Of a stretch of 64,000 bases of DNA, positions 10,292 through 43,909 are shown in pieces. Both the position numbers and the translations under genes were made by a program. How positions within the stretch are numbered: position 1 is the first letter of the stretch; each line of letters begins with the position of its first letter. This DNA comes from Neophaeotheca triangularis (taxonomy: Eukaryota), in contig BAAIJX010000022.1 of assembly GCA_054600435.1 (NCBI GenBank), positions 124,001-188,000 on the forward strand, in the 5' to 3' direction. Below the pieces are notes generated by a model. It worked only from the letters and a program-made list of their open reading frames with translations. It ran no database searches and had not been told where the DNA came from.

Positions 10292-13200
10292 ATGGGCCAG
10301 AGTTATTCACAGGCGGCCTTGCCAGCTGGTCCGACGGCGATAGAAACGCCAGAGCTTGCAGATGTGACTTTCGAAAAACCCCACGCAGGCGTTCGCTTCC
10401 TACGGACAGTCAGGGCCCGGCACCAGAACGGCATCGTGCTGGTCAAAGTATGCATGAAGTCGGGTCCCAACGTCTCATTCAAGGACTATGTCCAGCGTCT
10501 CAAGGATGAGCGCGACAGACTCGCAGATGTGTCCAACGCCCTCTCTTACCAACGCATCCTCGAGACCAACTCCATTGGCATTCTGGTGCGACAATATCTC
10601 TACACGACACTCTACGACCGGACAAGTCTTAGACCGCATCTCGTCGGTATCGAGAAGAAGTGGATTGCCTTCCAACTGCTGTGCGCGGTCCGAGACTGCC
10701 ACGCTCGTGGTGTCTTCCATGGCGACATCAAGGCTCGAAACATCGTGGTCACATCCTGGGGATGGGTCTTTCTAACCGACTTCTCCTCTGCTTACAAGCC
10801 GGTCTATCTCCCAGAAGATAATCCCGCAGACTTTACCTTCTTCTACGACACTTCTGGTTCTTCGAGCACGCGAACATGCAATGTCGCCCCGGAGCGCTTT
10901 CTTGCCGCCGGGCAGAAGCCTCTCAAAGAAGAAGACGAAGTATCCTGGAGCATGGATATCTTCAGTCTTGGATGCGTTATTGCCGAACTATATACAGAAG
11001 TTGCGCCGTTTGATCTGACACAGATGTTCAAGTTCCGGCGTGGCGAGTATGACCCGACTCTGGCGTTGCTGAACAAAGTGGACGACGTCCACATACGGGC
11101 ACTCATCGGCAGTATGCTTAAGCTGGATCCAGAAGGCAGATGGCATGCTCAGGATTATCTTGACGAGTACAAAGACAAGGCCTTCCCCTTGTACTTTTAT
11201 CAGCACTTGCACGCTCTCATGCAGGACATCACCGATCCAACCGCTGGCCGCAAACCCGTGATACTCAGCGAGAGTAATAACGGAGAGGCTGATGATCGTA
11301 TCGATCGTATATACCAAGACTTTGAAATGCTTTCTGTGTCCCTGGGATACATCGATCCAGTCGCTTTAAACCCCAAGACAGTCAAGGAACCAAGTCATAG
11401 CACTGGCCTTTTCCCTCTTGAGGTCGACATACCCAACCATCGCCACTCGGCAACTTCTTCCTTGACCGAGGATGGCGACAACGGCACATTTATCCTGGCA
11501 AACATGGTCACTTCTTCTTTGAGAAGCACAGCTCGAGCGGCAACACGCATCAGAGCTTGCGAGCTCCTACTTGCCTTCGCGGAACGGCTTCCCGACGAGG
11601 CAAAACTTGACCGAATTCTGCCATATGTGATGCCACTGCTCGATGATCCTAACGAAATGGTACTGGTGGCCGCATTGAGAACGATGACACAAGTGCTGGC
11701 TTTGGTGACTGTTACCTCTCCATCCAACTCCTACCTCTTCACTCTTTACATCTTCCCAAAGTTGCAGACGTTCGTCGCTTCGCCTGGTTTCAAAAAGAAC
11801 CCAGTCGTTAGGGCCACCTATGCTGCTTGCCTCGCTAGCCTCGCGCAGAGCGCCTCACGCTTCCTTGATATGGTACAGGCTTTACGTGCGGCCGGATCCC
11901 TCCCCAGTGAGGCTTCACCAGACGACGAAGGCACAATGCTCATGTATCAGGAATCCTACGACGCTGCGCGCGCAGAGTTATTTGATCAATTTGAAGGTCA
12001 AACCAAGGTCTTCTTGACAGACAACAACACCTCGGTGAGGCGAGCTTTCTTAAGCTCTGTGACCAGCCTCTGCGTCTTCTTCGGCGAGACAAAATCCAGT
12101 GACATTATCCTCGCACATCTAAATACCTACCTCAACGACCCTGACTGGTTGCTCAAATGCGCTTTCTTCGAGACAATCGTCGGAGTGGCTATCTACATTG
12201 GGGGCGCCAGCTTAGAAGAATTTATACTCCCCCTCATGCTGCAAGCTCTCGCCGACCCGCAAGACTTTGTCATCGAGCAAGCGCTGCGATCGCTTTCAAG
12301 CATGGCTCAACTTGGTCTACTTCATCGTCAGAAAATCTGGGAACTCATCGACATTGTGGCGAGGTTCGAAATGCACCCAAACGTCTGGATCCGAGGGGCA
12401 GCTGCTCATTTCGTGGCTGCTTCCACGACTTTCATGTCTGTCGCCGATGTCCGAATTCTCATCGCGCCTCTGCTCCAGCCGTACCTCAAAGTCCCAGTGA
12501 GCGACCTGACGGAATTTGAGCTATTGGACGCGCTCAAGAAGCCTCTTCCTCGTAACGTGTTAGACATGGCTCTGGTTTGGGCGAACAGGTCGGACAAGGG
12601 TGTTTTCTGGAAGCCTGCGAAGGAAGCAAGGCAGCTCTCCTACCGTGCAACAGGCCAGACCATACCATTCTCATCCGTGGCCGATCTGAGCTCTGGATCA
12701 ATGGCGAGGACGCCAAAGAATGATGAAGACGAGCAATGGCTGGGTCGACTGCGCACGGCTGGCATGAGGACGGAGGACGAGCTCAAGCTTCTTGCATTTC
12801 GAGAGTACATATGGCGAGCTGCGCAGCGGAGCAAGAGGGATCAGCCGGCAGTGGAGGAGTCCGAGTACGATGGGGTGATTCATTTGTCAAAGCTGGGCGC
12901 CAAACTGCAGACCGTCATCTTTGACAATGAACCCGACCAGTACGAGCGTTATGTTTCGGCGAGAGACCAGGATCACGAGAGGTCGATTGCCGAGGCTTTG
13001 CATGAGGCACAGGGAACGCATAAACGACGAGAAGGCGGATCATCCGAACTCAATGGAGATGCGGCGGTAGGAACCCAAGACGCGCGGTCAGCGCAGAATG
13101 CGGGCGATCTCAAATCCCCCTCGCTCGAAGCACCCAGCACACAGAAGCGTGGCTCCGGCACAAGCCTGTCGATATCGCCCAACGCTGGAATTAGTCTACT

Positions 13201-14956
13201 CAAGGACAGGGTACGAACTGTTCGCGAGAAGAACAGTGATAAAGGCTTGACATTAGGCGCAGAGCTCAAGGGGAAAGCCTCAGCCGAGGTTGCTACCGAC
13301 GACGCTACCGCAGCAGGCAGAGTCAGCACGCCTCTGGCAGGAAATAGTAGGAAACCTTCCCCTGCAGCTGGTGACGAGACAAAGCGTAAACAGCTCGATC
13401 GCACGGCGAGCGCAAGAGCCATACACAACTACCAGGGTAACGATCCGACCGTGCTAAAACTACTCGATACAGTGTACGTTGATAGCTTTGCCCTCGACTC
13501 CGCTGAATTCGGGCCAATAATCCAACCAATCAAACGTGGACCCATCCCTAGCGGCGGTAGTGTAGCCTCCAAGGGTGCATGGCGTCCTCAAGGGCAGCTT
13601 GTTGCCATCTTAGCAGAGCACGCGGACAAGGTTGTCAAGATTGTGGTTCCTGTAGACCATTCCTTCTTCCTCACAGCATCCGAAGATGGGTCAGTGAGAG
13701 TTTGGGACTCTGCCCGTCTGGAGCGCAACATCACCCATCGATCACGACAAAGTTACAGGCATGGGCCAAACGTCAAAATCACGAGTCTTTCTCTGGTTGA
13801 AAGCACTCATACATTCATCAGCACAGGCTCAGATGGCAGCGTACATGTCGTCAAAGTAGACATGAGCGACAATGGCACTTCTACACGCTATGGGAAACTA
13901 CGAACACTGCGCGAGTGGCAGATTCCTACCAGCAGCTCTGCCGGTGAATACGCAGTCTGGAGTGAACACTTTCGCGGCGATCCAGCCAGCACTCTCCTCC
14001 TCGCCACAAGCCACAGCCGTATCCTCGCCGTCGACCTCCGCTACATGACGATACTCTTCGAGCTGCAAAACCCCGTCCAACACGGCATCCCAACTTGCTT
14101 CTGCACGAGCCGCAAGCACGACTGGCTCCTCATCGGTACCTCCCACGGCATTCTCGACCTCTGGGATTTGCGATTCAAATTGAAACTGCGCTCCTGGACC
14201 TTCCCTGCCGCGGCACCTATCACCCGCCTCCAACTTCACCCCAGCAAACGTCATTCACGGCACAACAAAGTCTGCATCTCCGGCGGCACAGCACGCGGCG
14301 AAGTGACAATGTGGGACATAGAAAAGCTAATCTGCCACGAAATCTACCGCCCCTCGCGCTCGACCAATACCACCGCCGAGCCCCTCCACCTCCGCAACTA
14401 CGAACTCCACAACCTCGACGACGACCGCGGCGAAAGCCTCCTCAACCGCATAACAGCGTCCACCAGCACCATCGACGCAGACGCCACCAGCACCACCCCG
14501 GCCGTAACCACCGCCATGCACTTCGGCGTCTACTACACCCCCTCTGACACCGAATCCCAACATCCCTACTGCCTCTCGGGCGGTCCAGACCACAAACTCC
14601 GCTTCTGGGACTGCGAGAGCCTAGCAAACTGCTGCCTCATCTCCCCCGGCGGCGAAGCCACCCCAGCCAAACCCCCGTCAACAGCTACATACACTTTCAA
14701 CGCCATCGGCACTGACACGAAGGTTTTCACCGAGCGCTTCAACAACAGCGACGAGATTGGCGAGGGCAGCGGGAAGGCTGCTGCTGGGGTGGGGGGTGCG
14801 GGCAAGGGGGTCACAAGGGCCGAGACTATTAGGGGTAGTGCTAGGGGTCTGTTAAGTGGGCATTTGGATGCGATTTCTGATGTTGGGGTGCTGGAGAGGC
14901 CGTTCGGCATGGTTTTGAGTGCGGATCGGAGTGGGAGGGTTTTTGTCTTTCAGTGA
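10292..14956 (+). CDS. VPS15: Vps15 / PI3K regulatory subunit 4 (kinase, HEAT and WD40 domains)
   Basis: 1554-aa ORF with myristoylation-type MGQ start, HGDIK and DF..YKPVYLPEDNPADF kinase motifs, HEAT region KLDRILPY, C-terminal WD40 repeats. Confidence 0.96.
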   Translation: MGQSYSQAALPAGPTAIETPELADVTFEKPHAGVRFLRTVRARHQNGIVLVKVCMKSGPNVSFKDYVQRLKDERDRLADVSNALSYQRILETNSIGILVRQYLYTTLYDRTSLRPHLVGIEKKWIAFQLLCAVRDCHARGVFHGDIKARNIVVTSWGWVFLTDFSSAYKPVYLPEDNPADFTFFYDTSGSSSTRTCNVAPERFLAAGQKPLKEEDEVSWSMDIFSLGCVIAELYTEVAPFDLTQMFKFRRGEYDPTLALLNKVDDVHIRALIGSMLKLDPEGRWHAQDYLDEYKDKAFPLYFYQHLHALMQDITDPTAGRKPVILSESNNGEADDRIDRIYQDFEMLSVSLGYIDPVALNPKTVKEPSHSTGLFPLEVDIPNHRHSATSSLTEDGDNGTFILANMVTSSLRSTARAATRIRACELLLAFAERLPDEAKLDRILPYVMPLLDDPNEMVLVAALRTMTQVLALVTVTSPSNSYLFTLYIFPKLQTFVASPGFKKNPVVRATYAACLASLAQSASRFLDMVQALRAAGSLPSEASPDDEGTMLMYQESYDAARAELFDQFEGQTKVFLTDNNTSVRRAFLSSVTSLCVFFGETKSSDIILAHLNTYLNDPDWLLKCAFFETIVGVAIYIGGASLEEFILPLMLQALADPQDFVIEQALRSLSSMAQLGLLHRQKIWELIDIVARFEMHPNVWIRGAAAHFVAASTTFMSVADVRILIAPLLQPYLKVPVSDLTEFELLDALKKPLPRNVLDMALVWANRSDKGVFWKPAKEARQLSYRATGQTIPFSSVADLSSGSMARTPKNDEDEQWLGRLRTAGMRTEDELKLLAFREYIWRAAQRSKRDQPAVEESEYDGVIHLSKLGAKLQTVIFDNEPDQYERYVSARDQDHERSIAEALHEAQGTHKRREGGSSELNGDAAVGTQDARSAQNAGDLKSPSLEAPSTQKRGSGTSLSISPNAGISLLKDRVRTVREKNSDKGLTLGAELKGKASAEVATDDATAAGRVSTPLAGNSRKPSPAAGDETKRKQLDRTASARAIHNYQGNDPTVLKLLDTVYVDSFALDSAEFGPIIQPIKRGPIPSGGSVASKGAWRPQGQLVAILAEHADKVVKIVVPVDHSFFLTASEDGSVRVWDSARLERNITHRSRQSYRHGPNVKITSLSLVESTHTFISTGSDGSVHVVKVDMSDNGTSTRYGKLRTLREWQIPTSSSAGEYAVWSEHFRGDPASTLLLATSHSRILAVDLRYMTILFELQNPVQHGIPTCFCTSRKHDWLLIGTSHGILDLWDLRFKLKLRSWTFPAAAPITRLQLHPSKRHSRHNKVCISGGTARGEVTMWDIEKLICHEIYRPSRSTNTTAEPLHLRNYELHNLDDDRGESLLNRITASTSTIDADATSTTPAVTTAMHFGVYYTPSDTESQHPYCLSGGPDHKLRFWDCESLANCCLISPGGEATPAKPPSTATYTFNAIGTDTKVFTERFNNSDEIGEGSGKAAAGVGGAGKGVTRAETIRGSARGLLSGHLDAISDVGVLERPFGMVLSADRSGRVFVFQ

Positions 14957-15495
14957 GTTAGTGAGTGAGTGAGGGTGGATTGAAGCGGGTTGAATGGGAA
15001 GAGTGAAGGGGATAGTCAAGGTGAGTAGCTTGGTGACGAGACCCCTGGATGGTGATGGGGTTGGCGGCTCGAGAAGAATGGTTTGTACCGCCACCGTTTT
15101 GCCTGGGACTTAGCTCGTTTACACATGACTCTGTAGCGTGGCTGTCCATTCTCAATGCAACAGTATCTCGAGATCCCCATTTTGCTTCTTCTCCGGTTCG
15201 TCAAATTCGCTTAAGAAGGAATGGCGAAAGTTTGCATTGCGGAAGTTTTTTAACAAGATTGGGCGAAAGTAGGGGCAAACGAAGAAGAGGGCAGATGGAA
15301 GAGAAAAAGCAAGACTTACCGCGTTCCTGGCACGCTCTTCGGGATAGGGAGATGGTTCGAACTGCTCATTGTCTCTTCTGGCTCAAAGTTATTATTGAGA
15401 AGGCATGGCGAAATGGGAAGGAAAAGCAAGAGAGACTCACACACCCACAAAGTCCTCGCCGTACAATCTCTTCCGAACTCGACCAGAAAGAACCC

Positions 15496-15945
15496 AAAAA
15501 AAATCCCCCCCAATGTGCCTGACGAGACCAGGGCAAAAGAGAAACTCCCACTTCGCCGGGGACGTCCAGCGCCCCGGGCTTCGGGAGAAGAGAAACCATT
15601 TAACCAGCCCATTTAATTTTTTATCTTTTATGGGCGGCACCTTTCCTTGTGTATTTTTGAAGGAAAGGCTGGTTTTCTGCTTTTTGTAATTTAATTTGTT
15701 AATTCCTTTTTTTTTTAATTGCGCTGGGGTCCGAACCCGGCGCTATTGTTTTATTTTTATTTTATTCGTTTGCGCCGGGTTCGAACCCGCGCACTTCGGT
15801 GGAAGAATCGGTGGGAGGTTTCTCTGGTGGTTTAGTTAGGTTGATTTTTCGGATTGGGATATAGGGAGAAGGGGGGGAGAACGTACCGTTGAGGAATGTC
15901 GTCGAATTCCTTGGAGCGTTTGCGTTTGAGTTGAATATATGGTAT
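15496..15945 (-). ncRNA. Candidate spliced, structured Pol III-type ncRNA gene, copy A (unassigned family)
   Basis: TATA-like 16-mer 15945-15930; A-box-like TTCCTCAACGGTA 15896-15884; intron 15886-15824 (GTACGT..CCTAAC..CAG); B box GGTTCGAACCC about 15788-15777; several GC-rich hairpins; no T4 run on the sense strand until 15538, T8 at 15503-15496. Architecture matches the 41084-41392 locus. Confidence 0.6.
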
Positions 15946-16901
15946 TAAGTCAAAGGGGACCTCGATCCGTAGGTGACGGTGAGGTGAGGTAAGGACGAGG
16001 GTGAGGTGAAGTGAGGTACCTTTGCGCTCTCCCTATGCAGTCGTGACGGCTTTTCTCTTTCACTGTGCAAGGCGCGTTCCCATTGCATGCGAAAAACTCT
16101 CTCGAGACGTCAAGGATAGCCAACCTTCTTGCCCAGCTCTGAAACTGCGTCCACAGGGCTTTTGATGTACCCGTTGTTTTTATTGTAGCCAGCGACATCA
16201 CAGTCTTCACTGCTCAAGGAGACGAATTTGCTTTCGACGACTTCCTGACCACCGGCTGTCAGAGAACCGCTATGTCCAAGCGTAGTAAACATGCCCCTTG
16301 TTTTTAGTCACTCTCCTTCACGGATGCATCGCAAGCGATGGCGATGCTCAGCGAGAGACTGATCCCAAAATGCTATGGCGCCTCCACTAGATGACAAGAG
16401 AATCTGTACCCAGCCAGAACGAACCAGCCTATTGCAAGACCAACATCCCATCTCTCGCAGCAGTTAGAAGCATCCCAGAAACCATTCAAGCTCTTCACCC
16501 AACATTCGCTCTCCACCCAACATTCAAAAGCCATCCAGATCCTTCTCATCCCTCTCCCGCGGCACCTCTTTGTCCATATTCCATCAATCTTCCACATGTT
16601 TCCAGGAAACCCGTCTCAGTACAAAAGCCCAGGCCAGGAGGCGTACGCTCACTCTCACAAACTCTCACAGCATTGTCTTAACCCGACCGTCCCAAGCGCC
16701 GAGCTAAACCTCCAATATTAGCTCCCAGCATCCCCCCCGCCGAGCAGAGAACTCGAAACCCATAACTCCGTTCCCCCCAGGAGCACGCAACCTTCCCTCA
16801 CCTCTGTCCCCCAAAGCTCAGCTTCAAACCCAAACACCAAGACCAAGCCAACACCCAAAACCCCCACATCCACAACAACAACAACAACAGTGACAACCAA
16901 A

Positions 16902-18282: not shown

Positions 18283-19386
18283 CTACATACCACCCCACTC
18301 GATGCAAAAAGTCCTCGTCCCTTTACTATCATCCACCTTGTCATTTTCCTTCTCCTCTCCCCCAAGCAAGTAACCTTTCTTCACACCCGTACCCAACCTT
18401 CCACCTCCCACCAGTTCGAGCAAATCGAACTCTTCTTCCCATTCCAGCCCTTTGCAGAGGAAATGACTATGGAACCGTAATGGATCGCCCGGGTAGGCCA
18501 TGTACTGACTTCCGAAACGTAGACCAGGTGCAAGAAAGTAGCCGTTTTCGTGCATGTGTTTGTAAAGTGGGTATGAGGACGCTGAGACAGGTGGAAGAGG
18601 CAGACTTTCCGTTTGCTGCGAAAGAGTAAGAGGAGGGTAAGTTGTTGTAGGAGTGTTCGGCCAGGGCTCTAGCTCCGGTTCCACAATGGAAGAGGCAGCG
18701 GTGGTGGAAGTTTCGTCCGATTCCCGGCGTGACCGAGGTGGTCCAGAAGTGCTAGGCGGTCCGAAGAGCGACTCATCTTCACTCGGCTGCCTCGCCAGAT
18801 GTGGCATCGGGGGTGTCGGCATGGCTGAGCCGTTTCCAGAAGCCGCGGCAGTAGGTTCCGCCCGTCGCTTGCTAGGCTTCCTCTTACCCTTGCCAGCACT
18901 CGACGAAGGCTGCAGCATGTCTTCGGGAAGATCATTCCAATCGCCACCTGCGTTGGTAGCTTGCATCTTCTTCGCAAGCCCAGCCTTCCGCCTCTCTTCG
19001 CTCTCCTTCTGAAAGCCCTTTGCGGCAGCCATTCCTTGTCGTCGCAAGCAAGCCTCGTATGCTCTCTTCTCCTCACCGCTCAACCCATTCTGCAAGAAAT
19101 CCTGTTTGTGCGCTTTGGTATCATCAACGATATATGCGATGCCCTTGTCCACCAACAGACGAGCCTCTTCGGGCATGAGCTCAAGCGGGATGCCTTGGAA
19201 CACATTCTGCTGCGGTGCTTGCGGAAGGCCTCCGATGAGAACGCCAATGATGTTGTGGTTTTTTCGGAGGTAAGTGATGGCATTGACGTCGTAGAGAAGA
19301 TAACGATGGGCTAGGGTGAAGATGGCAATTGGCAAGGTGGGCTCTGAGGTGCCATCTGGCCCTGAGGCGTTGGTATTGGCAGCCAT
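18283..19386 (-). CDS. SEN34: tRNA-splicing endonuclease subunit Sen34
   Basis: GVLIGGLPQAPQQNVFQGIPLELMPEEA and GYFLAPGLRFGSQYMAYPGDPLRFHSHF...GRLGTGVKK motifs. Likely start MAANTN at 19386, downstream of a 5'UTR intron 19616-19408. Confidence 0.93.
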   Translation of the reverse strand: MAANTNASGPDGTSEPTLPIAIFTLAHRYLLYDVNAITYLRKNHNIIGVLIGGLPQAPQQNVFQGIPLELMPEEARLLVDKGIAYIVDDTKAHKQDFLQNGLSGEEKRAYEACLRRQGMAAAKGFQKESEERRKAGLAKKMQATNAGGDWNDLPEDMLQPSSSAGKGKRKPSKRRAEPTAAASGNGSAMPTPPMPHLARQPSEDESLFGPPSTSGPPRSRRESDETSTTAASSIVEPELEPWPNTPTTTYPPLTLSQQTESLPLPPVSASSYPLYKHMHENGYFLAPGLRFGSQYMAYPGDPLRFHSHFLCKGLEWEEEFDLLELVGGGRLGTGVKKGYLLGGEEKENDKVDDSKGTRTFCIEWGGM

Positions 19387-19483
19387 ATTAGGCGTGGAGA
19401 CGGAGAACTTTGGTATTGAGTCAGCATCAAGAGCTAGATCAACAGCTGTTCGTCGAGTGCGATGGAGTGTTGTCCAGGTTAAA

Positions 19484-19566
19484 TCATACAAAAAAGACAC
19501 AAATTATTTACTCGTCACGAGCCTGAGGCTTCAGGGGATTGACAGATAATAATGTTTTTTAATCAT
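19484..19566 (-). ncRNA. Intronic box C/D snoRNA (SNORD110/snoR14-like; predicted SSU U in GGAUUGACAG)
   Basis: Inside the SEN34 5'UTR intron: box C ATGATTA, 12-nt guide ATCTGTCAATCC, D' CTGA, C' GTGACGA, D ATGA. The guide is complementary to the conserved SSU sequence GGAUUGACAGAU. Confidence 0.75.
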
Positions 19567-20247
19567 GTGGAAATCGCTAGGAAGAAGAAGGCAGGGGGGG
19601 GGGGGTTTAAACTTACAAGTTTAGTATGTCTTTCGAGCAGTGAAGCTCGTCTCTATCAGTTGTTCACGGCATGTTGTGGTAAGGTGATATTAATGAGGAG
19701 GAAGGAATGCGATAGATGAGGTGTCTCAAGCCAAGACACGTGTTTGTGCGATGCCCCGTGCACTACTACCTAACCTACCTTAACCTAAGCATCTAAAATG
19801 AGGTAGCTTACTAATAGTACTACTACTACCTAGTACTAGTAACCTGGAATAGTTGCTGAGGTGGCCGGGACGGGACATGCTCGGAACGAGTCGTGGTAGG
19901 AGCTTGCTCAGCGTAAAAATTCGAGCTCCTTGGATGCCTTCCATGCCTTCCTCCCTCAACAACCTAGAATATCTTCATCTCGACAGTCTACCTAGGTACG
20001 CTTCACATGGTACATACCACCAGCCCGCCAGTATTGTCGCTACGAGGCTTCTGGATGTGGTTCGACTGCAGCACAGCTTGGGCGCCATGCAAAGGCTCGA
20101 AATGCAAAACATCTCTCTCTCTCTCCACTCACTACTAGACTGCTGAGCAAGGCACATGATTACATGGCAGCCAGGCAGTAGTGAGGCACACAAGGCCCAA
20201 CTAGCCCTTATACTGTACGTTGACCCCCCTTCTCTTGCATCTCTATC

Positions 20248-20318
20248 CTGATGATACCTATCACTACTGTTCCGGAGACTATCAATGATCCACGAACAAA
20301 ACATGCATCACCATCTGA
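20248..20318 (+). ncRNA. snR55: Box C/D snoRNA, snR55/U33-like (SSU Um1269, yeast numbering)
   Basis: CTGATGA...CATGCATCACCAT-CTGA. The guide pairs with SSU UGGUGGUGCAUG (one G-U pair), and the +5 rule lands on U1269. Confidence 0.8.
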
Positions 20319-20488
20319 TCCTTCGCCCTACGACTCACCTTCACACCTCACGGCATGGCCTGTCGCGAACTACAGCTGACAGACCTCAAGAACAGAACAT
20401 CCGGCCATGATAGTGGTTTAGGGTCGAAATCAGCAATATGTTAGTACTGGTGAGCATCCCGAGACCCCCGCCTCCCCCCATCCCCAAC

Positions 20489-20566
20489 ATGATGAGTGTA
20501 TCAATTTTCAGTTCTGCTACTGAAGTACAATGTCGAAACTTCATACCAACTTACCAATTTGTCTGA
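20489..20566 (+). ncRNA. snR61: Box C/D snoRNA, snR61/U38-like (LSU Am1133, yeast numbering)
   Basis: ATGATGA...CAGTTCTGCTA-CTGA (D') ...ATGTCGA (C') ...CTGA (D). The guide is complementary to LSU AGCAGAACUG. Confidence 0.85.
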
Positions 20567-20725
20567 TACACAAACGACGTCAATTCTGCATCACACGATG
20601 GAACCAGGCGGGAGAGCGTAAGCTAACCTGCCAACTCAGACAGATCCAAACGCCAGCTTCAAATAGCTTCCTACACACCAGGGTAAGAAATTCCCCATTC
20701 TAAGCACCCTACCCCCAACATTATC

Positions 20726-20986
20726 ATGATGACACCTAGTCTATCCATTCAACGAACCCCCTCAAAGGTAGCCCATCCCGCCGAGCTAGGCTTCCTTATA
20801 CCGTACCGTCAGCGCTGCCCGAGTCGAGCTTGCTCGGTAAGGAAGGGCGCGCAGATGGGAGGATCGGTTGTGGAGTTGCAGTAATTCGCGTCAATCTGGC
20901 TTCAGAGCGCTCGAACCATGCCTTCCGTTATGGGCGGCGTGGCAAGGGCGCCGGTGGGCGGGCATGAGTTAAAACGGCTTGCCTGA
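20726..20986 (+). ncRNA. Long (261-nt) box C/D snoRNA resembling vertebrate SNORD17
   Basis: Box C ATGATGA, then AGTCTATCCATTCA, D'-like ACGA, an insert of about 210 nt that is GC-rich and base-paired, C' ATGAGTT, and D CTGA. The guide ATCCATTC(A) is complementary to LSU UGAAUGGAU. Confidence 0.7.
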
Positions 20987-32426: not shown

Positions 32427-34662
32427 TGCTTCGCCAACCCTAGGGTCGAGATGGTATTTTGCTGTGAGAAATAGAATTCAAGGCGAATAATCGCCTGTCC
32501 ACACGGCATTTGCTGATCGGGCGAGAGCGATGGCACTTCCTCCAAGTAACAACAACAACAACAACGGCAATAACGAGGAGGTCGCGAAGCGTCAAGCGCG
32601 ACGTTCCAAAACCAAGCGATTGTGAAAAGAAGCTGACGAGGCCATCCTGGTCCATGGGCGTGCAGCCGCGGCCTGTCTATTGTCAGTACGCTATCCGGAC
32701 ATCCCCACGGCGAAGTGATCTAAACAAGGACGATAGCTCCGGCGGGCCTGCAGATCCTCTTGGGTAAGCGCCACAAGACGTTTTAAGAGTGGGCAAGGAA
32801 AGTTTTGTGTCACATCGTATGACGGCCATGAAGTCGAATGTGGGTTCTGAGATGTTGGGAAGTCGAGGCTGTCGAATCAACCAAGACTCGAGACGTTGTA
32901 GGATTCCTGGGTGGAGGGTGCTTCCTTTGTTGGTCGTAGCGCCACGGCTCGGCAAGGCAGCCTACATATACCCACAAAAGTACGGAACGATGATCAGCAG
33001 TGGGGATTGGGGAATATGATTGATACATACATCAACTCCTTTTTTGATTCTTCTGTCCTCATGCCACTGAGCTACCTGTCAACGTTTCTCTCTGTAGAAG
33101 CCAGCGCTATCAATTGAGTATTATTGATACGCTGACTCTGACATCGAATTGGATCAACACAGGAGATCAGATTTACCGAACGTTGGCCTAGGAGTCGGGC
33201 AAGACTCCAAACCGGCATTCGACAGCGAGCAAGACTAACGCAAAGCCGACATTAATCATTTGCGGACAAACACAGAACTTGAGTTCGGCAAGCGCGGTCC
33301 CTGTCGACGAGGTCAAAACTCCGGACCAGCGCAGTGGTGTTTGTGGCGCAAACGGTTTTGCCAGGTATGTTAGTTACTGCACGTCCTCCATGGCGGCGGA
33401 TCCAGGATGCGTAGGTATCATTGCGTGTGCTAATAAGGTTGCGAGCCGCATTGCGTCCTCGCGCATCGTGGCTTCCCTGACAGAAATCGGCGCCATGGGT
33501 GGGGCCGCGCTGCCTAGAAAGCAGTTTCAGTATCTCAACTCCACAGCATGTCGCCCATATGAGTATGAGATTAGCCGCGGACTGACGCAGGAACCGACCT
33601 CGACACGTTCGCAACGTCGTTTTGCAAGGCTTAACTGTTCAGTCAAGCTCTCAGCTGTTGGAGTAGGCAACTAGAATCTGCTCAGAAGACGGTCAAGTAA
33701 GGTAAGTCGGTAGTGATTGTAGCTTTTCTCAACCACATATCCGTCGATCACTGCCCAGCGCGGCGCATCTTGATGCTGTCTTTGGAAGGACTGGAACGTC
33801 GGACCAACGGCCAAAGTTTTACCGACGAGTAGGAATGCATCAGATACGGTTCGCTGCAACGGTCACGGAGTCCGGAGAACGAGGCAGCGACGCATCTTCC
33901 TGCCAGGCAGTCCGCGGGCGATAGCACAAGCACTTGCTTAGATCAGACAAGTCATCAAAACAGCCAACCTTTAGTTGCGAGGTACTACTAGAGGCTGATG
34001 TCGGTTTCGGCTGGCCCTAAGACAGGCAATTGTTGGTTGCGAGTAGTACTAGTAGTAGTGAGCCTGGCCGTGAAGGTGTCCAACAACTTGTCCCACGTTG
34101 GCTGCTCCGGAGAATCTACCAAGTACGGAGGATAACGATGAATGAACCTTGGTTGCACAGGCCACACCACTACTGTCTTGCAAGTTGCATAGGAGCCGAA
34201 TCGGCGCCTACGACATGTCCGGCGACGCTACGGACAAAAGGCGAGGTGTAACTGTAGTAGTGGTCTTAGATGCAGGAGTGGATGAGGAGCCGAAGCCTGG
34301 AGTCCGAAGCCTTGCTGCTTCCCGCCCACAGAGGGGCAAAAAGTCACGAAATGGGGCACGCAGTGATTGGGGTCGCTGTGGGAGGCTGGAGCGGATTAAC
34401 AGATGCTCCGAACACCTTCGCCTTCGGGATGCTCTCGTTAACGTTAATATTTGATGAGAAAATTCGAAGTAATAATCATTGCCCGCTGTGCTCTTCTCCA
34501 CTGAAAGTCGTAGTCCGGAAGACATGTAGTGGACGGGAGAATTGAAGCTAATGGGAAGAGCCGCGATCCGATGGCCTGTGCACGCACGCAACCCTGGGCT
34601 TGATGCGAATAGAATGCTTGGCGAAACAACCTCACCTACTCACGTCGATGACTAATAAGGTG

Positions 34663-34700
<38 letters not shown>

Positions 34701-34739
34701 TTTAATCAATCAATCAATCAATCAATCATTCAATCAATC
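34663..34739. repeat. (ATCA)n tetranucleotide microsatellite, imperfect
   Basis: About 18 ATCA units with two interruptions, seen directly. Confidence 0.95.
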
Positions 34740-36793
34740 CCATAATCATCAAGCTTTTTCCACGTCTTAGACTTGTAATAACAATAACCATTATTTCGAC
34801 CATTTCAGGAGGGATTCGGGTTGTTGATGTTTAACAAGAATTACTATTACCCCTCACCTGTCACCACCGACGTTGACGGATGGACATTACGACTCCTCCA
34901 GCACGAGCTGCCTTTCGCGGGCCAATTAGGTGTATCCATAGAAGTTATTACTATTCTCCCTGCTCGCACCGCCGTGTTCGACCGCTTCGTAGAGTGCACG
35001 ATGCACGACTATCTATAGCCATCGTGTTGTGGAGCACCCATCTACAGCCAACTCCGTACATAATCCTCCGATTCCACACCGTCCCAATACTCAGAAGTCA
35101 GCTGGTTTCCACGCTCAATGCAGACGTTCGAGTCGGGCTTACCCATGAACCCCTAAATCTCACGACGCAAGTTATTATTTACTCGTTTCTCATCTGGGCC
35201 CATCTGGGCCATGTACAATGCAACCCGCGAGAGTAGTTTCCAACGCCGGCGATGCTGAGATCACCGTTTACCCCAACCCGCCATCCTCCATGCCAATGCT
35301 CACACTCCCAGGTGAAGAGATCGGATATGCTATCCGATCGAGAAGCACCGCATGCTCGGTACGCTGCCACGCAATCTAAAAAAGTGCCCAGGGCCGAACA
35401 TGCCCGACTCCAATATTCTCCGATGAACCATCGTTCGTGTGGACTGCCCGGCGAACGATTGTATAGGCTAGTTCTCCCCAGTCTATCCCTGTTGCTACAC
35501 GATATTGAACCTCTGGCAGCAACTTGAGAAAGCCCCGAAGCCAACTCCGATCTGTACGATAAGCTGGCTGGTTTGGTCATTTACCAACGCAGTCAAGATG
35601 GTGAGTTCTCGAGCGGAACAAAGGACTCGATAACGGGTAAAGCATGGTCGTTTGAGGCGTTCATCGTGTTCGCTCGATTGCGCGCCATTGAACATCTCAA
35701 TTTTCATCTAGGGGTGCCGTCCTTGTCGCACCGAAAGCCTTTTCACGATCACTGATGCCACGAACCGGGGAGACTACCAAGACGTTTCCGTAAAGCACGT
35801 GGGACACCACTACTCAGCTTCCAGATTTCTCAGCTCCTCCCCAGAACACCAATAGACATTCCGCTCCGCTGGGAGGTCAGTTCCAGCCAGTACACGAGCG
35901 CGGCTTCTAAGCTCTCGGCCAGCAATGCAAGAGCAAGAACATCAATTTACGCGACTCACCATTGCCCTCGAGGTCGAGGCCCGCCGCCAGTAGACGAGCG
36001 ACAGCGATCTCTCCCGCTCCGCGAAGAGCGCAGAATCCTTTCCTCCCCCCAAAAAAAACAATTACCTGTACTCCCTGCTACGGCGCGACCGCGTACGAGC
36101 CGGAAATCGTATCTCCATGTTGGGAGAACGCAAGCCCGGCGATTTTCCCACGGTACCCACAATTTCACCTGCAACCGAATCATCAACGGTGAGATCGACA
36201 GGGCATGAAAGCTCAGATCGTCGACGCTCGGCGTCGCCAGAGACCCCGGTTACCATGTATGGGTGCGTTGCGGGGGAGGGAGCTAAAGCTGGTGGGCACG
36301 AAATACTCACTACAACGCATCGAAGATCGTGGTGACGAACGCAAGATCTGGAAGTTGGGAAGGGCGTTTGGTGGGTAAAGCATGGTTGAGGATACTTAAG
36401 TGAGTACCTATCTAGCTGAAGCCTCGTAGTCAGTTGGAGCAGGAACCATTTAGGCTCACAGCTGAGATCACCTTGCCGACGGGTCGGTAAGGTGCGCCTC
36501 ACTGCTCAGAGCTCTTTTTTCTTCTCTGTTTCTTCTTCCTGGCTATAGTCGTTACTTTGGCTCATGGCAGAAGCTGCCCTGCCGGCAAGCTGGCTAGGTA
36601 TGCTTCGATGCCATTTGTTTTCATTCCCCTCTTGTACTCCGCTCTTCTACCCATCGAACTGCGGTCGCATTGGCTAACGGCAGAGACTGCTCGGCCGGTG
36701 AGCCAGCTAGGTGTGCCTCAATGCCACGAGCACAGTGCTTTTTCAAGTCGTCGATGTAGCTCGCGCCGTGCAAGAGGATTTTCTCGACAGAGC

Positions 36794-38661: not shown

Positions 38662-39864
38662 CTACTCATGGTGACCTTTCCCCTTGCCACCCTTGCCATG
38701 CCCATTTCCCTTTCCTCCACCCCAGCCGCCCCTCCACGGCTCACCGGGCTCACCCGAAGGGCCCCTCATAGTCTGGTTGGCGGGCGGCGCTTCACCAAAG
38801 TCAGGTGTGCCTTCCGCATCGAACCTGACGGGCAAAGCGTTGGACCAGCGGATGCTGCCGCAGTTACCCTCAGGGTCGGGAGTCGAGTGGTAAGCGCTCC
38901 AGACTTCGGTGCCGTCGGGGGACATGAAGAAGCTGTATGGAATAGTTAATGAGACGCAGTTCTGGGGGTTTGAGAAGGAATGGGAGGGGGAAAACGGACC
39001 TGTTGTGCCCAGTTCCGAAGTTGCCGTTGGCGGAGCTGAAGACAGGGCCGGTCTTGGTCCAGCTGTTGCGGTCTAGCGGGTCGCCGCAGCCGTCGTACTC
39101 CAGCAGGCCGAGCGAGTAGTCGGGGGTCCAGCAGAAGCTGGCGGCAAAGCTCAACCAGGTGCGCCCAGTGGGTGCGTGGTACAGAGCGGCAGCGCCTTCG
39201 TTGACTGGCGTCTCGGAAAGCTCCCATTCTTGGGTGGGCTCGGACAGGAGGTAAGGTTCGCCGATTACGGCTGGCGAGAGCAGCTCGGCAATGATGAGGG
39301 ACTGGTTGGTCTCGCCGGTGCCGCCGCCGAAGCCTGAATAGACCAAGTAGCGCTTGTTGTTGGCGTATAGGACAGTGGCGTCAATTGCCCAATCGTCGCC
39401 GATCTGGCCGAGGTAGCTGTAATCGTCCCAGGGGGAGTCGCCACCTAGTCGTGTCTGTTAGCTTACGATACATGCTTCAACAGGTTGTGGTTTGAGAAGC
39501 GCGACCTACCCTCAATGACGTGAGAGCGCTGTGTGTCAAGATCAAGGCCTTCGGTACCAGCGGTGTAGTAGATGTGCCATCTGTTGTCGACAAAGTGCAT
39601 CTCTGGGGCCCAGACATCGCAGCACCGGCTGGGGTTGGTATCAGACCAGACTTCCTTCGTAGTGCCGTTCTTGAGGCCATTGAGGGTCGTGGCACGGGTC
39701 ATTTGGATCTGATCCCAGGTGGTTGAGATGAAGTAGTAGTAGCCATCGTGGTAGACGATATTAGGGTCTCCGCCATCGTACGTACGGAGAGGGTTCGAGT
39801 AGGGTGCAGCGGTGGTGAAAGGGAGGAGGGAGGCCAAGAGGGGGGCCACGGAAAGGAAACGCAT
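38662..39864 (-). CDS. Secreted glycoside hydrolase family 43 (arabinofuranosidase/arabinanase-like), 3 exons
   Basis: Signal peptide MRFLSVAPLL..., GGDPNIVYHDGYYY, CCDVWAPEMH, WAIDATV, VNEGAAAL, FGTGHN; two introns (about 39445-39508 and 38935-38998). Confidence 0.9.
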
Positions 39865-41083
39865 TGTGGATAGAGATTTGCGGTAGCTACCTTGTTCTTG
39901 TCGCAATCTCAGTTGGTTCTGCAGAGGCGATACCTACATACTTATGTCTTCAGCGTCAGCCCCAGAGGCCGGGCGTCCGAATGTCAGCCAAGTGTTGAGA
40001 ATGCAGCTTGTTTTCCTGGCGACGGAGCATGACCCTCTTGCGAGCGGGCAATGGCAAGGCCGAGCATGTCGTTATTGCGAACGGCGTGGAGTCGACATGA
40101 GGTCGGTCAAAGTCTCAACATGAGCCGCCGTCTCTGCCAATGGCAACGAGCTCCGCCCGGCTGCTTCGGGGTTGTTGTGGAGAGCGCGCGGGGATGGTCC
40201 AACGTCAACGTGCATTGGAAATCTGGGCATTGCGACTTGGTCGGTTGGAAGAACGAAGAGACCGTACATCCCATACTTTTCCAAGTATTGATTCTGCTTG
40301 CGTCTTGCCCTGCATCTCATGATCTCACATACTCTGCGACGAATCGAAACGAGTCTCATTGACGCATCGGTAGTGACCTCGGGGCTGCGCGACACCTTCA
40401 GATAGCCATGTCATGTAACGACACTAGCGATCAAACGATACCGTAAACTCCTTCGAGACCCAGCAGTGATATTCACCCATGAATTCTCCCTTGACGACAA
40501 AGCTGTGAATCCAGAAACAATTCCACAGTGTGGCCCTAACACCCTTTGCCGCCTTCTCTTCCTGTCCGAGGATCTCGCAAACCTGATCAGCGATCTTGCC
40601 CCGTGCCTTGCCGTGCCAGCGGAGCAGAGTCGCATCTTCTGAGGCTTAGACGAAAGTACTGGCGTTTTTGAGGTCTTGACATGGGCTTTCATCTATCTGT
40701 TCGATGAGAGAAGCAAAGACGTTCAAGGCTACCGAATCTCGTTCGCTCCGGCTTGCAATACGAAGTGTCAGGGGTATGTTGATAGTGAGTCTCGAACTAC
40801 TCAACTTCTGCTTGTTGAGCCATAATCGATGTTGGGTCTCGCGTAGCATCCGATGCTGCGTCAAGTCAAGGGAGGAGTGTCGGTATCTGAACGCACTTGC
40901 GATCCTTATGTTGTTGATTATGTTTGCAGATTCTGACCGTGAAACCCTCTCAGGCTAGATGCGCGGTCATGGTACAAACTCAGTGCGCATCTGGTGCGTG
41001 GGGGCACAGGTGAGGTGAGGTGAGGTGAAGTGAAGTTGGGGGTGGAAGATCTCCACATCGTCTGCCTTACGGCCACAGGGGGC

Positions 41084-41392
41084 ATACCATATATTCAACC
41101 TCCCGCCAACCTTCCCAGATCCCGCCAACGAGGCGCAATCGGTACGTTTGCCTAATAACTTCCCAATTCGAACCCACGCTAACCTAGTCTTCAGATATCC
41201 GTAGCCAACTGGTCGCCGGTTCGATCCCCCCTCGTCCCCTTCCTCAGTTACGACGTTAAATTAGCGACTGAGGCGTCGTGCAGTTCACCGACGTATAAGC
41301 ACAACTGCCTTGTAGGCCAAAGATAAACCACTCCTTCACTCGGATGAGTTTGCTTTCCCTCCAGTGCTTAAGTTACTGGAGGCTTTCTTTTT
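41084..41392 (+). ncRNA. Candidate spliced, structured Pol III-type ncRNA gene, copy B (unassigned family)
   Basis: 16-mer ATACCATATATTCAAC 41084-41099; A box AGGCGCAATCGGTA 41131-41144; intron 41142-41194 (GTACGT..GCTAAC..CAG); B box GGTTCGATCCC 41218-41228; three hairpins; first T-run of 4 or more is T5 at 41388-41392. Confidence 0.6.
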
Positions 41393-42140
41393 GCTGGGTT
41401 TTGCCCCTTTGCTGTCTTTGGTACATAAATTTGAGCTTAAGAGACATCCATCTGGCTTCATCACCTGTGTTGCTACAGTCTCGGCCACTGGAGAGCGTGA
41501 AGACAACCTGTTGTCAGGAACAGAGGATGAAAACCACCGCGACCATCCTAATCAGTTAACACCAAGGAGACCCACGCTGCTGCCCGAGCACCTCGGCCAG
41601 TTTCAGACATCGTCGCCGCCCGCAGAAACAACAGCCGACAAGTTGCAGCGATCTCATCAGCGCACCGCTATCACCGCTCCACCCGGTGGCTACGCAGTCG
41701 AGGACGCGGCCAGTGATGCTACCAAAACACTTCCTTTGACGCTCGGCGCCGTGGAGCGACGGGCGATGAACCTGAGATTCCTGCTGAGACGCTTGCGCAA
41801 CACAGAGTTTGTTCACCGGTGACCAGCGACCATTGGACATTTAGAAAGGCCAAGGGTCGCATTTCCCGACTTCACATCCGAACCGGCCTTGCTGCCGCGG
41901 CATGCACCCGCTATGGGAAAACAGGCCACTCCTCCGTCGACGGTACCAGATCTATTGCCCGACGACGGCAAAGCAAAGCTCAACGCGTGGATAGTAGGGC
42001 TTGAAAAGAATCTAGGGCAGGTCCCAATATATAGTTGTCGTTAACGCGATACAACGAAAACCAAAACAATGAAATTGCAAAGGATTAAGGACCAATGACA
42101 CAATACTGGATGCGGCTGAAATCTTCTAGAAACCTACAGT

Positions 42141-43909
42141 CTAACAACCCAAATATCTCTCCTCCACCCACCTCACTTCCAGATCGTCCACAATCCTGCA
42201 AACCACCACCTTAATCTCCGGGTAAACATTCATCAACCGATTCAGCCCCATCTTACCCGCCATGTACGTAACAAAAACAATTCTATTCTCTTTGACGCCA
42301 TGGTCGAGAAGCACCCTCACAGCCATGAGTGCTGCGCCACCGCTCGACATCTGCGGGTCCAACAGGAAGACCTGATGGTCTGAGATATCGGGCGAGAGCT
42401 TGTAGTAGTGTAACTCTGGCTCACCAGTGCGGAAGTTCGTCTGAATGAGCATGCGGCCGGTGCGGCAATCGGGAACGACGCGTTTGAGGCCCGTGGACAG
42501 AATATCGCCGCCACGTAATATGACGACAGCGCTGACTTCGTAAGCCAGCTCGAGACCATTGTAGCTGCGGCCGGGGACCGGTGTCTCGACTGTCCTGGAC
42601 TTGTAGTGTAGATGTTCGGTGGCGGTTTCCACAAGCATTACGGCCAGGCGGTCGAAGTAAAAGACGAAGTCTTCACGATCAAGACCGTGAGACATGATGA
42701 TCGTGTTGATGCCTCGGACTTGGTTGGTGTGTTGGAGGTACACGATGTTAGGGGAAAGTTGCTGCGCTTCTGCGACTTTGCCTAGGCGTCGGAGCTCGAC
42801 TTGGTGCATCATGGACTTTTGATGGAGAGTCTTGTGAATCCTATCCGAGATCATGCCTGCATGTTGTTAGTTTTGAGGTGTACTGCGTATGCTAGAGTGC
42901 GCCTGTCATACTTATAGCAACTTTGTTTTCGATGCCTCTCGGTACGATTAGATCTGGTAGACACTGTCAGTGACGGTCTTTTGCGGGTCCGGCATGTGTA
43001 GCTTGATTGGGAATTGCTCGATCAGACAAAAAGATGATGATGGTAAGGTTTTCCGCAATGTTGTTCGGTTGAACTATGCTTTGTTTGGATCATCACAAGA
43101 GGGGTGACGGAAGTAAAAATTGAGAATGCTCGAAACGTACCTGCAACATGCCTCTGAGGTTCGACATACTTGTGGAAGTTTGGCCTAAGAAGACCAGTAT
43201 CAGCCCCCAGCCGTGAAGTCGCGGTTCTGTGGAACTCACTTGACAAAGCTAAACCACTGCTTGATACAGCCTTCAATGTCTCGACCGCGCTCCCTGACGT
43301 CACGAAGCACTGCCTTGCAGGTCTGATTAGCCAAAAATATCGGATAGAGTGCATATGTGACCAATCTTACAGCGCCTCGATAAGCAAAGATCTCCATCTG
43401 CCTCTGCAAAGATTTTGAGATCTAGCATGTCAAGTACTCTATCATCATGAAGAGCAAAAATGCCCTCTAGGATCAGGACATGAGGAGAGTAAATGGTAGT
43501 CGTCGCTTCCTGTCGAGCATGTTTCTCAAACGAGTAGACGGGGATCTCAGCCTTCTTGCTTCCAACCATAGTCAGCAGGTGCTCGGCGAGAAAGTATAAT
43601 GAGGGTTCTGGCTTACCCAGTCTTGATGTCTCTCAACCTGTCAACGAGAACGTCAAAGTCGATGGCCTCGGGAGCATCAAAATCGTACTCGTTCTGAAAA
43701 GCTTTTGCGCTCTGCTCAGGCGTAAGGGGCTTGTAAAAGCTGTCCATTGACAGAATCACGACCCATGGCAAACTCAGCTCCCGAATGATAGCCAGAGCTA
43801 AAGAAGTCTTGCCGGACCCGGAGCTACCAGCGACACCGATGATGGAGGTGTTGGACCATGGAGGTGAGTAGTGAGCTCTTTCCACGGTGCCAACGGCATG
43901 GTCGGCCAT
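42141..43909 (-). CDS. URK1: Uridine kinase Urk1 (kinase plus UPRTase-like domain), multi-exon
   Basis: HYSPPW, IGVAGSSGSGKT P-loop, MDSFYK, LILEGIFAL, and C-terminal DFVFYFDRL/LLDPQMSSGGAALMA. Confidence 0.93.
43022..43096 (-). ncRNA. Intronic box C/D snoRNA, snR60/U80/U77-like (LSU Am817, yeast numbering)
   Basis: In the 187-nt URK1 intron (43140-42954): GTGATGA...GCATAGTTCA-A-CCGA (D') ...TTGCGGA (C') ...CTGA (D). The guide is complementary to LSU UGAACUAUGC. Confidence 0.78.

Follow-up and report, generated by a model that had tools for sequence, protein, structure and literature searches.

Within the window, that is, the whole stretch of 64,000 nt of DNA that was analysed, we find two loci, A and B, that are, to judge by their sequence, clearly related fungal loci and have remained unannotated. 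They lie 25 kb apart and are inverted relative to each other: the shared core of locus B covers positions 41084-41240 of the plus strand, with a unit that extends to about 41400 or beyond, and that of locus A covers positions 15945-15770 of the minus strand, with a unit that extends to about 15500 or beyond. We consider, with moderate confidence, that A and B represent two paralogous, unannotated RNA polymerase II (Pol II) units, each with a 5'-proximal spliceosomal intron and with a product that would be non-coding or orphan. With a similar, intermediate degree of assurance we regard the two loci as ancient paralogues whose units have not been annotated. The Pol II reading is suggested by the nature of the conserved islands, which correspond to Pol II promoter and spliceosome signals plus two extra elements. 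From motifs and their statistics we infer that the units would be transcribed, where transcription would start, that splicing would take place and which polymerase would be engaged: a TATA-containing 16-mer would position Pol II, a start a few tens of bases downstream would give rise to a very short non-coding first exon, the spliceosome would remove a consensus short intron (GTACGT...CTAAC...CAG), and the remaining RNA would be non-coding or harbor an orphan micro-ORF at most. The features on which this view is built are given here with their positions in the window and their strand.

41009..41030 (+): (GGTGAG)n microsatellite of locus B, upstream of the TATA motif
41084..41099 (+): 16-mer ATACCATATATTCAAC of locus B with TATA-like core, identical to that of locus A
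41100..41141 (+): TATA-to-donor stretch of locus B, whose 3' portion would contain exon 1 and in which the direct repeat TCCCGCCAAC is present twice; no ATG, aligned part about 50% identical to locus A
41131..41144 (+): A-box-like string AGGCGCAATCGGTA, one of 111 window matches at up to one mismatch
41142..41194 (+): putative 53-nt spliceosomal-type intron of locus B, with donor GTACGT at 41142-47, CTAAC at 41179-83 and CAG at 41192-94
41161-72 (+): conserved island TCCCAATTCGAA in the intron of locus B
41214..41228 (+): CGCCGGTTCGATCCC of locus B, which includes GGTTCGATCCC (41218-28) as a perfect B-box match; 13/15 bases common to locus A
41230..41235 (+): CCTCGT, complement of ACGAGG at 41128-33
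41316-41822 (+): stop-free frame of 168 codons at locus B, with a mild codon bias of 0.126 per codon
41358..41392 (+): 9-bp hairpin of locus B followed by CTTTCTTTTT, the first sense-strand T5 run; not distinctive
15978..16016 (+): (GGTGAG)n microsatellite of locus A, beside the TATA motif
15930..15945 (-): 16-mer ATACCATATATTCAAC of locus A, identical to that of locus B
15896-15884 (-): TTCCTCAACGGTA of locus A, counterpart of the A-box-like string
15824..15886 (-): putative 63-nt spliceosomal-type intron of locus A, with donor GTACGT at 15886-81, CTAAC at 15839-35 and CAG at 15826-24
15859-48 (-): island TCCCAATCCGAA in the intron of locus A
15727..15788 (-): perfect palindromic B-box match GGTTCGAACCC of locus A (15778-88) and a near copy
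15496..15503 (-): T8 run of locus A, the first sense-strand T5+ run

Relatedness of the two loci and their shared elements

Plain alignment finds A and B barely similar, so that their relationship rests on the co-occurrence of ordered islands. Global alignment yielded 179 identities in 334 aligned columns (54%), and outside the islands the similarity is about that of random sequence. The best HSP between the two loci spans 67 columns at 70% identity; its E value is 2e-4 in the local comparison and 0.65 in a window-wide self-comparison, where it is tied for ranks 5 to 8 among 273 HSPs. The islands follow each other in the same order in both loci, namely the 16-mer (16/16 bases), CGGTACGTT (9/9), the intronic TCCCAATYCGAA (11/12), CTAAC, CAGA and CGCSGGTTCGAWCCC (13/15). 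Near-perfect islands within an otherwise saturated background suggest that selection has acted on the islands. The 16-mer has two window matches at up to three mismatches, both of them exact and one in each locus. In both cases, the donor GGTACGT/GTACGT begins 52/53 nt past the TATATT core of the 16-mer, and the chance of encountering an identical 16-mer at equal offset (within 1 nt) before two given sites is, by simple arithmetic, about 3 x 4^-16. At the same time, complete conservation over 16 bases exceeds what a TATA box alone would need, which counts against the Pol II reading. A (GGTGAG)n microsatellite adjoins both loci, its orientation relative to the 16-mer being opposite between A and B; the corresponding pattern GGTGAGGTGAGG has eight window matches at up to one mismatch, three of them at locus B and four at locus A. 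No further copies of the module were found within the window, and a third candidate (24373, minus strand) that had surfaced in a loose scan showed no resemblance on inspection.

That an intron is located at this site, and that the element is a paired one, had been proposed in an earlier reading of the sequence (the original prediction), and both points are borne out: the intron is a clean one of spliceosomal type in terms of sequence, and locus A is a second locus with the same layout. The introns of both loci conform to what characterizes fungal spliceosomal introns, with a GTRNGT donor, CTRAY 5-25 nt before YAG and a length of about 50-70 nt, and in the short introns elsewhere in the window the donors read GTACGT/GTAAGT and the branch points CTAAC/CTGAC. 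The strict pattern GTA[AC]GT..CTAAC..YAG has two matches in the window, exactly at A and B, compared with a mean of 0.47 in a Markov null (30 simulations). Its recurrence in other fungal contigs (14 matches in 239,428 bases) indicates that the pattern marks real introns. Splice signals that have been kept while the intron interior and the length (53 vs 63 nt) vary are the picture that a spliced intron under selection would present. Intron-less junction copies of A or B were not detected within the window.

For comparison with other fungi, we used 45 metagenome contigs (239,428 bases) that carry the neighbouring UPRTase/uridine kinase gene with 52-76% amino-acid identity. These contigs are too distant to report on conservation or synteny; they displayed no nucleotide similarity to locus B and a single 18-nt chance match to the locus A region. 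They contained neither tRNAs nor perfect B boxes nor matches to the 16-mer, and a TATA element at -52 ahead of a strict intron was absent from all 45.

The perfect B-box match 3' of the intron, another element of the original prediction, is found in both loci. Three window matches to GGTTCGANNCC (the palindrome at 15777-15788, which counts on both strands, and 41218-41228) compare with 0.71 expected, and a count of three was reached in 1 of 100 shuffles. The match lies within the putative exon 2, at a distance of 24 nt (B) or 35 nt (A) from the acceptor side, and 128-151 nt past the TATA element; a perfect sense-strand B box at this distance in both loci is not expected of a Pol II unit and thus argues against our preferred reading. 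Both B boxes have a C where the stricter consensus, given as GGTTCGANTCC in a passage of PMC3395662, has a T. The conserved GGTTCGA(A/T)CCC motif is, as far as the comparison of the two loci can tell, a real shared element, which could serve as an RNA hairpin, as the site of a dimeric DNA-binding factor or as a TFIIIC site. In locus A the motif is palindromic and part of a hairpin-forming inverted repeat of 17 nt (15727-15788, minus strand; 94% complementary) that comprises two GGTTCGA-type copies and a 28-nt A-rich loop. The 8-mer palindrome GTTCGAAC occurs at two sites of the window (15355-15362 and 15779-15786), both within locus A.

The A-box-like string and the question of tRNA ancestry

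According to the original prediction, a tRNA D-arm-type A box of locus B doubles as the 5' splice site, with the same overlap in locus A. As first stated, this finding would imply a tRNA-type promoter that is destroyed by its own splicing, which the sequence does not support. All strings on which the prediction had been built are present at the coordinates given for them (locus B: 41131-41144, 41142-41147, 41167-41175, 41128-41133 and 41230-41235; locus A: 15896-15884 and 15886-15881). The A box consensus reads TRGCNNARY(N)GG and corresponds to tRNA positions 8-19, with a first T that is normally invariant. The 14-mer of locus B deviates from this D-arm-type consensus at a single position, precisely this first T. 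Searching the window with TRGCNNARYNGG at up to one mismatch returned 111 matches, or about one per 580 bp, relative to a shuffle mean of 88.8; the string at 41131-41142 is among the 111, and several of the others are situated inside ordinary coding sequence. The corresponding locus A string TTCCTCAACGG is missing from these matches and lacks the R-G core. It follows that an overlap of A box and donor is not common to the two loci: of the claimed overlap in both copies, the GTACGT part stands for A and B, but the string in copy A is not an A-box match. What A and B do have in common at this place is CAA(T)CG|GTACGTT, i.e. the last exon bases together with the adjoining 5' splice site. The A box thus probably does not hold up as a meaningful element: the match is at chance level, the T that should invariably come first is lacking, and conservation does not extend to locus A. 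The overlap of the string with the donor in locus B is probably a coincidence, and the D-loop-like GG would simply be the exon-end G followed by the first G of the intron.

The proposed tRNA ancestry fared no better, as ARAGORN was negative on spliced and genomic forms alike, Rfam was negative as well and the potential stems are out of register. ARAGORN was applied to five in-silico forms (the unspliced sequence of either locus, spliced A, and B with either CAG or an alternative TAG taken as the acceptor) and reported no tRNA in any of them with five option sets, default and relaxed. Calls emerged at the 70% threshold only, for locus B at 41196-41298 with an odd 37-nt intron and for locus A on the opposite strand, and these calls exclude the A-box string. 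Stretches measuring 1301, 1201, 151 and 236 bases remained without a match to the Rfam tRNA model even when E values of up to 10 were admitted, and ARAGORN detected no tRNA gene in the entire window. When locus B was threaded by hand in the registers dictated by the A- and B-box strings, the acceptor stem attained 2 Watson-Crick pairs and one G-T wobble out of 7, the D stem not a single Watson-Crick pair, the anticodon stem 1 of 5 and the T stem 3 of 5 pairs. The acceptor-like pairing of ACGAGG with CCTCGT, which had been taken as a hint of tRNA descent, is real as a complementarity, but it is 2-3 nt out of register and does not exceed chance, 6-bp complements being found in 3.7% of equally placed genomic and 6.4% of shuffled window pairs. 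Similarly, the reverse-strand B-box-like string TTCGAACCC reported in the intron does exist, but it is one of seven window matches to TTCGAACC.

In view of these results, we consider it very improbable that locus B descends from a tRNA gene, or is a pseudogene, in an advanced state of decay, of which the D-arm and T-arm have survived and within which a spliceosomal intron has arisen. In favor of such a descent, the 14-mer resembling an A box, the perfect B box after GGTC (a variable-loop-like string) and the 6-bp terminal complementarity are all in the right order and on one strand. Yet neither ARAGORN, applied to genomic and spliced sequence, nor the Rfam tRNA model found anything, and in register the D, anticodon and acceptor stems are not formed and the T stem reaches only 3/5. 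Moreover, an A-box-like string up to 90 nt before any given B box is expected arithmetically in about 8% of cases and a terminal complementarity of this kind in 4-6%, splicing would leave 55 nt of RNA between the complementary ends, which is below tRNA size, and locus A has no A box.

Genomic setting, coding potential and RNA features

The window is of nuclear ascomycete type with a GC content of about 54% and is filled with housekeeping genes, among them those for a Dbp10-like helicase, Anp1, a Sec7/GBF1-type exchange factor and Kei1. An Atlas look-up with the UPRTase fragment pointed to Ascomycota. Loci A and B occupy roomy intergenic stretches with housekeeping genes alongside. Genes of the neighbourhood are:

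10292-14956 (+): Vps15-like kinase, intronless coding sequence
18283-19503 (-): gene with a tRNA-intron endonuclease catalytic domain (PF01974, E 8e-15)
38870-39933 (-): GH43
42141-43632 (-): UPRTase-domain uridine kinase

The tRNA-intron endonuclease gene sits between loci A and B, and we saw no link to either of them. The Vps15-like protein is the sole member of its 90%-identity cluster in the protein collection. A microsatellite of the (ATCA)n type, about 100 bp in length, is present at 34647-34755. The only Rfam match in the window at gathering thresholds is the snoRNA snR61 (20484-20569), which is part of a series of short exons and introns at 20200-20760 (+) that resembles a snoRNA host gene. 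In the introns flanking snR61, C-/D-box strings are discernible by eye (TGATGA near 20251 and CTGA near 20316; ATGATGA near 20726), and this host gene may contain up to three intronic C/D snoRNAs. Loci A and B share with it putative short non-coding exons, consensus introns (GTACGT/GTGAGC/GTAAGA donors; CTAAC/CTGAC) and the absence of an ORF. In contrast to the host gene, however, A and B have introns of 53 and 63 nt, in which a snoRNA would not fit, and no snoRNA model matches; conversely, the shared 16-mer and the B-box-like motif were not seen at 20200-20760.

A protein-coding function of the two loci was considered and rejected. No ATG precedes position 41344 in locus B or 15612 in locus A, leaving the putative first exons without ATG, and the first-AUG ORFs amount to 71 aa (B) and 98 aa (A). 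None of five local ORFs contains a Pfam family, and codon-bias scores at the loci range from -0.12 to +0.13 per codon versus 0.18-0.23 in neighbouring genes, those of the first-AUG ORFs being negative or close to zero. The first-AUG ORFs are absent from the protein collection, in which Vps15 of the same 374,929-base contig, serving as control, is present. The stop-free 168-codon frame of locus B has its first in-frame ATG only 18 codons before the stop; none of 224 candidate homologs was retained at E values up to 0.01, and none was found among 1.84 billion representatives. It would thus be non-coding or else represent an orphan whose start is unusual. When A and B were translated in three frames and compared, no shared peptide was revealed either (best score 39, null 34-50). 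Taken together, the lack of Pfam families, of homologs for the 168-codon frame, of annotation for the ORFs and of a common peptide speaks against a coding role.

Known classes of structured RNA were of equally little help. Rfam lends no support to a snoRNA, snRNA, riboswitch, U3 or SL-RNA, and inspection of locus B by eye revealed neither C/D nor H/ACA boxes. The RNA of locus A (15495-15905) folds strongly (z-score -6.7), largely because of the inverted repeat formed by the B-box copies, while that of locus B folds weakly (z -2.05), and no structure is common to the two. Rfam also returned some miRNA-like matches for locus A, with E values of 0.005-0.02 and scores that fall far short of the gathering level; they were discarded, as they reflect the inverted repeat only.

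As to potential transcript ends, the sense strand first reaches a T5+ run at about +270 in locus B, where it is a T5, and at about +400 in locus A, where it is a T8. Such a run within 270-400 nt in both loci would also suit Pol III and thereby weakens the case for a Pol II unit, the frequency of T5+ runs in the window being 0.77 per kb per strand. Likewise at odds with the Pol II reading is a sense-strand stretch of about 365 nt in locus A that is free of T4+ runs but contains 10 A4+ runs. AATAAA/ATTAAA strings follow directly after the B-box hairpin of this locus.

Competing readings and significance

One rival reading takes A and B to be small RNA genes that depend on Pol III and TFIIIC and contain a spliceosomal intron; TATA and B box would recruit TFIIIB/Pol III, with an A box that is weak or absent. 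A primary transcript of 270-400 nt would then end at the first long T run and be spliced in the manner of fission-yeast U6. We judge this to be unlikely, although several observations are in its favor. Perfect B boxes are confined to these two loci within the window and number zero in 239,428 bases elsewhere; TATA is located upstream; a second, reverse-oriented GGGTTCGAA lies within the locus B intron; and the T5 and T8 runs are found at +270 and +400. To our knowledge, no spliceosomal intron has been described in a Pol III transcript outside snRNA genes. The A-box match of locus B does not rise above chance and locus A has none, Rfam provides no U6, 7SL, RNase P/MRP or tRNA match, and T5+ runs are common in this window. 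The bodies of A and B, unlike those of a structured small-RNA family, have neither sequence nor structure in common, and the AATAAA/ATTAAA strings right after the B-box hairpin of locus A do not fit a Pol III unit well. In tRNA genes, A and B blocks are spaced by 30-90 bp according to a passage of PMC5855946, a range that includes the 75 bp between the A-like string and the B box of locus B. The same source, in the part concerned with U6 promoters, reports that fungal U6 genes differ as to which of the TATA, A and B blocks they employ, and that the B block of a Pol III gene can lie within a spliceosomal intron: fission-yeast U6, transcribed by Pol III, has an upstream TATA, an A block and a B block within an mRNA-type intron (PMC5855946, citing Frendewey 1990 and Tani & Ohshima 1989). 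Loci A and B resemble this gene in combining TATA, a spliceosomal-type intron and a B-box match in one short unit, and the locus B intron has a reverse B-box-like string as well. They differ from it in that there is no U6 or other Rfam match, the perfect B box resides in the putative exon 2 instead of the intron and the A box is not credible.

It appears rather unlikely that the loci are product-less cis-regulatory or chromatin modules, in which the 16-mer and the palindromic GGTTCGAACC would be protein-binding sites acting on neighbours, either as ETC-like sites bound by TFIIIC only or as sites of a dimeric factor, and in which the intron signals would be incidental or stem from an unstable cryptic transcript. 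The intergenic position of both loci beside housekeeping genes would be compatible with such a role, as would the restriction of the GTTCGAAC palindromes to locus A; what it leaves unexplained is the conservation of donor, branch point and acceptor at proper distances around a variable interior. Intergenic TFIIIC sites with a B box only are known in yeasts, as reported in passages of PMC3395662, and loci A and B are similar to these ETC/COC sites in presenting an isolated intergenic B-box consensus without a tRNA gene. What defines an ETC site is its occupancy by TFIIIC, together with a conserved 10-base 3' extension in budding yeast. The likeness comprises the core B box alone, and the B box of A and B, unlike that of ETC sites, is tied to a module of TATA plus intron. 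Quite improbable, in our view, is that A and B are decayed, non-functional copies of a mobile or duplicated element, be it SINE-like, MITE-like or LTR-derived, despite the inverted copies 25 kb apart and the A-rich tracts, T-arm-like hairpins and strong fold (z -6.7) of locus A. Had the copies decayed neutrally to about 54% identity, a 16/16 block and four other near-perfect islands should not have been spared; there is no tRNA-related head, neither further nor intron-less copies were found within the window, and the DNA between the copies holds housekeeping genes instead of transposon cargo. The same housekeeping genes in the intervening 25 kb rule out that A and B are the terminal repeats of a giant transposon. 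Mg-SINE is one of the tRNA-derived SINEs of fungi. The AfuSINE2 families also belong to this group; tRNA-related SINEs of fungi with A and B boxes are described in PMC5063351, and the two loci are reminiscent of them in their B-box and A-box-like strings, the A-rich tracts of locus A and the presence of more than one copy. They deviate from fungal SINEs by lacking a tRNA-related head, by conserved islands at about 54% identity in place of uniform similarity and by the presence of an intron. The view of the original prediction that this is not an ordinary SINE remains valid.

As the preferred reading, that of Pol II units, would have it, the gain of this analysis is a modest one for annotation: within a housekeeping region that is otherwise well annotated, two units with an intron each, probably non-coding, had been missed, with a conservation pattern that points to the 16-nt promoter block and the B-box-like palindrome as functional elements. 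We regard it as improbable that A and B constitute an undescribed class of ascomycete small-RNA genes that would combine TATA, an intragenic B box, Pol III and spliceosomal processing; in a variant of this idea, a Pol II unit would attract TFIIIC through its B box, which would then act as an internal element for regulation or insulation. If the B box does bind TFIIIC, the loci would offer a compact natural case for studying the interplay of Pol II and Pol III factors or, alternatively, for examining how the spliceosome handles a Pol III transcript other than U6. Should the Pol III class prove true, the arrangement of fission-yeast U6 would be extended to a gene family other than snRNA genes.
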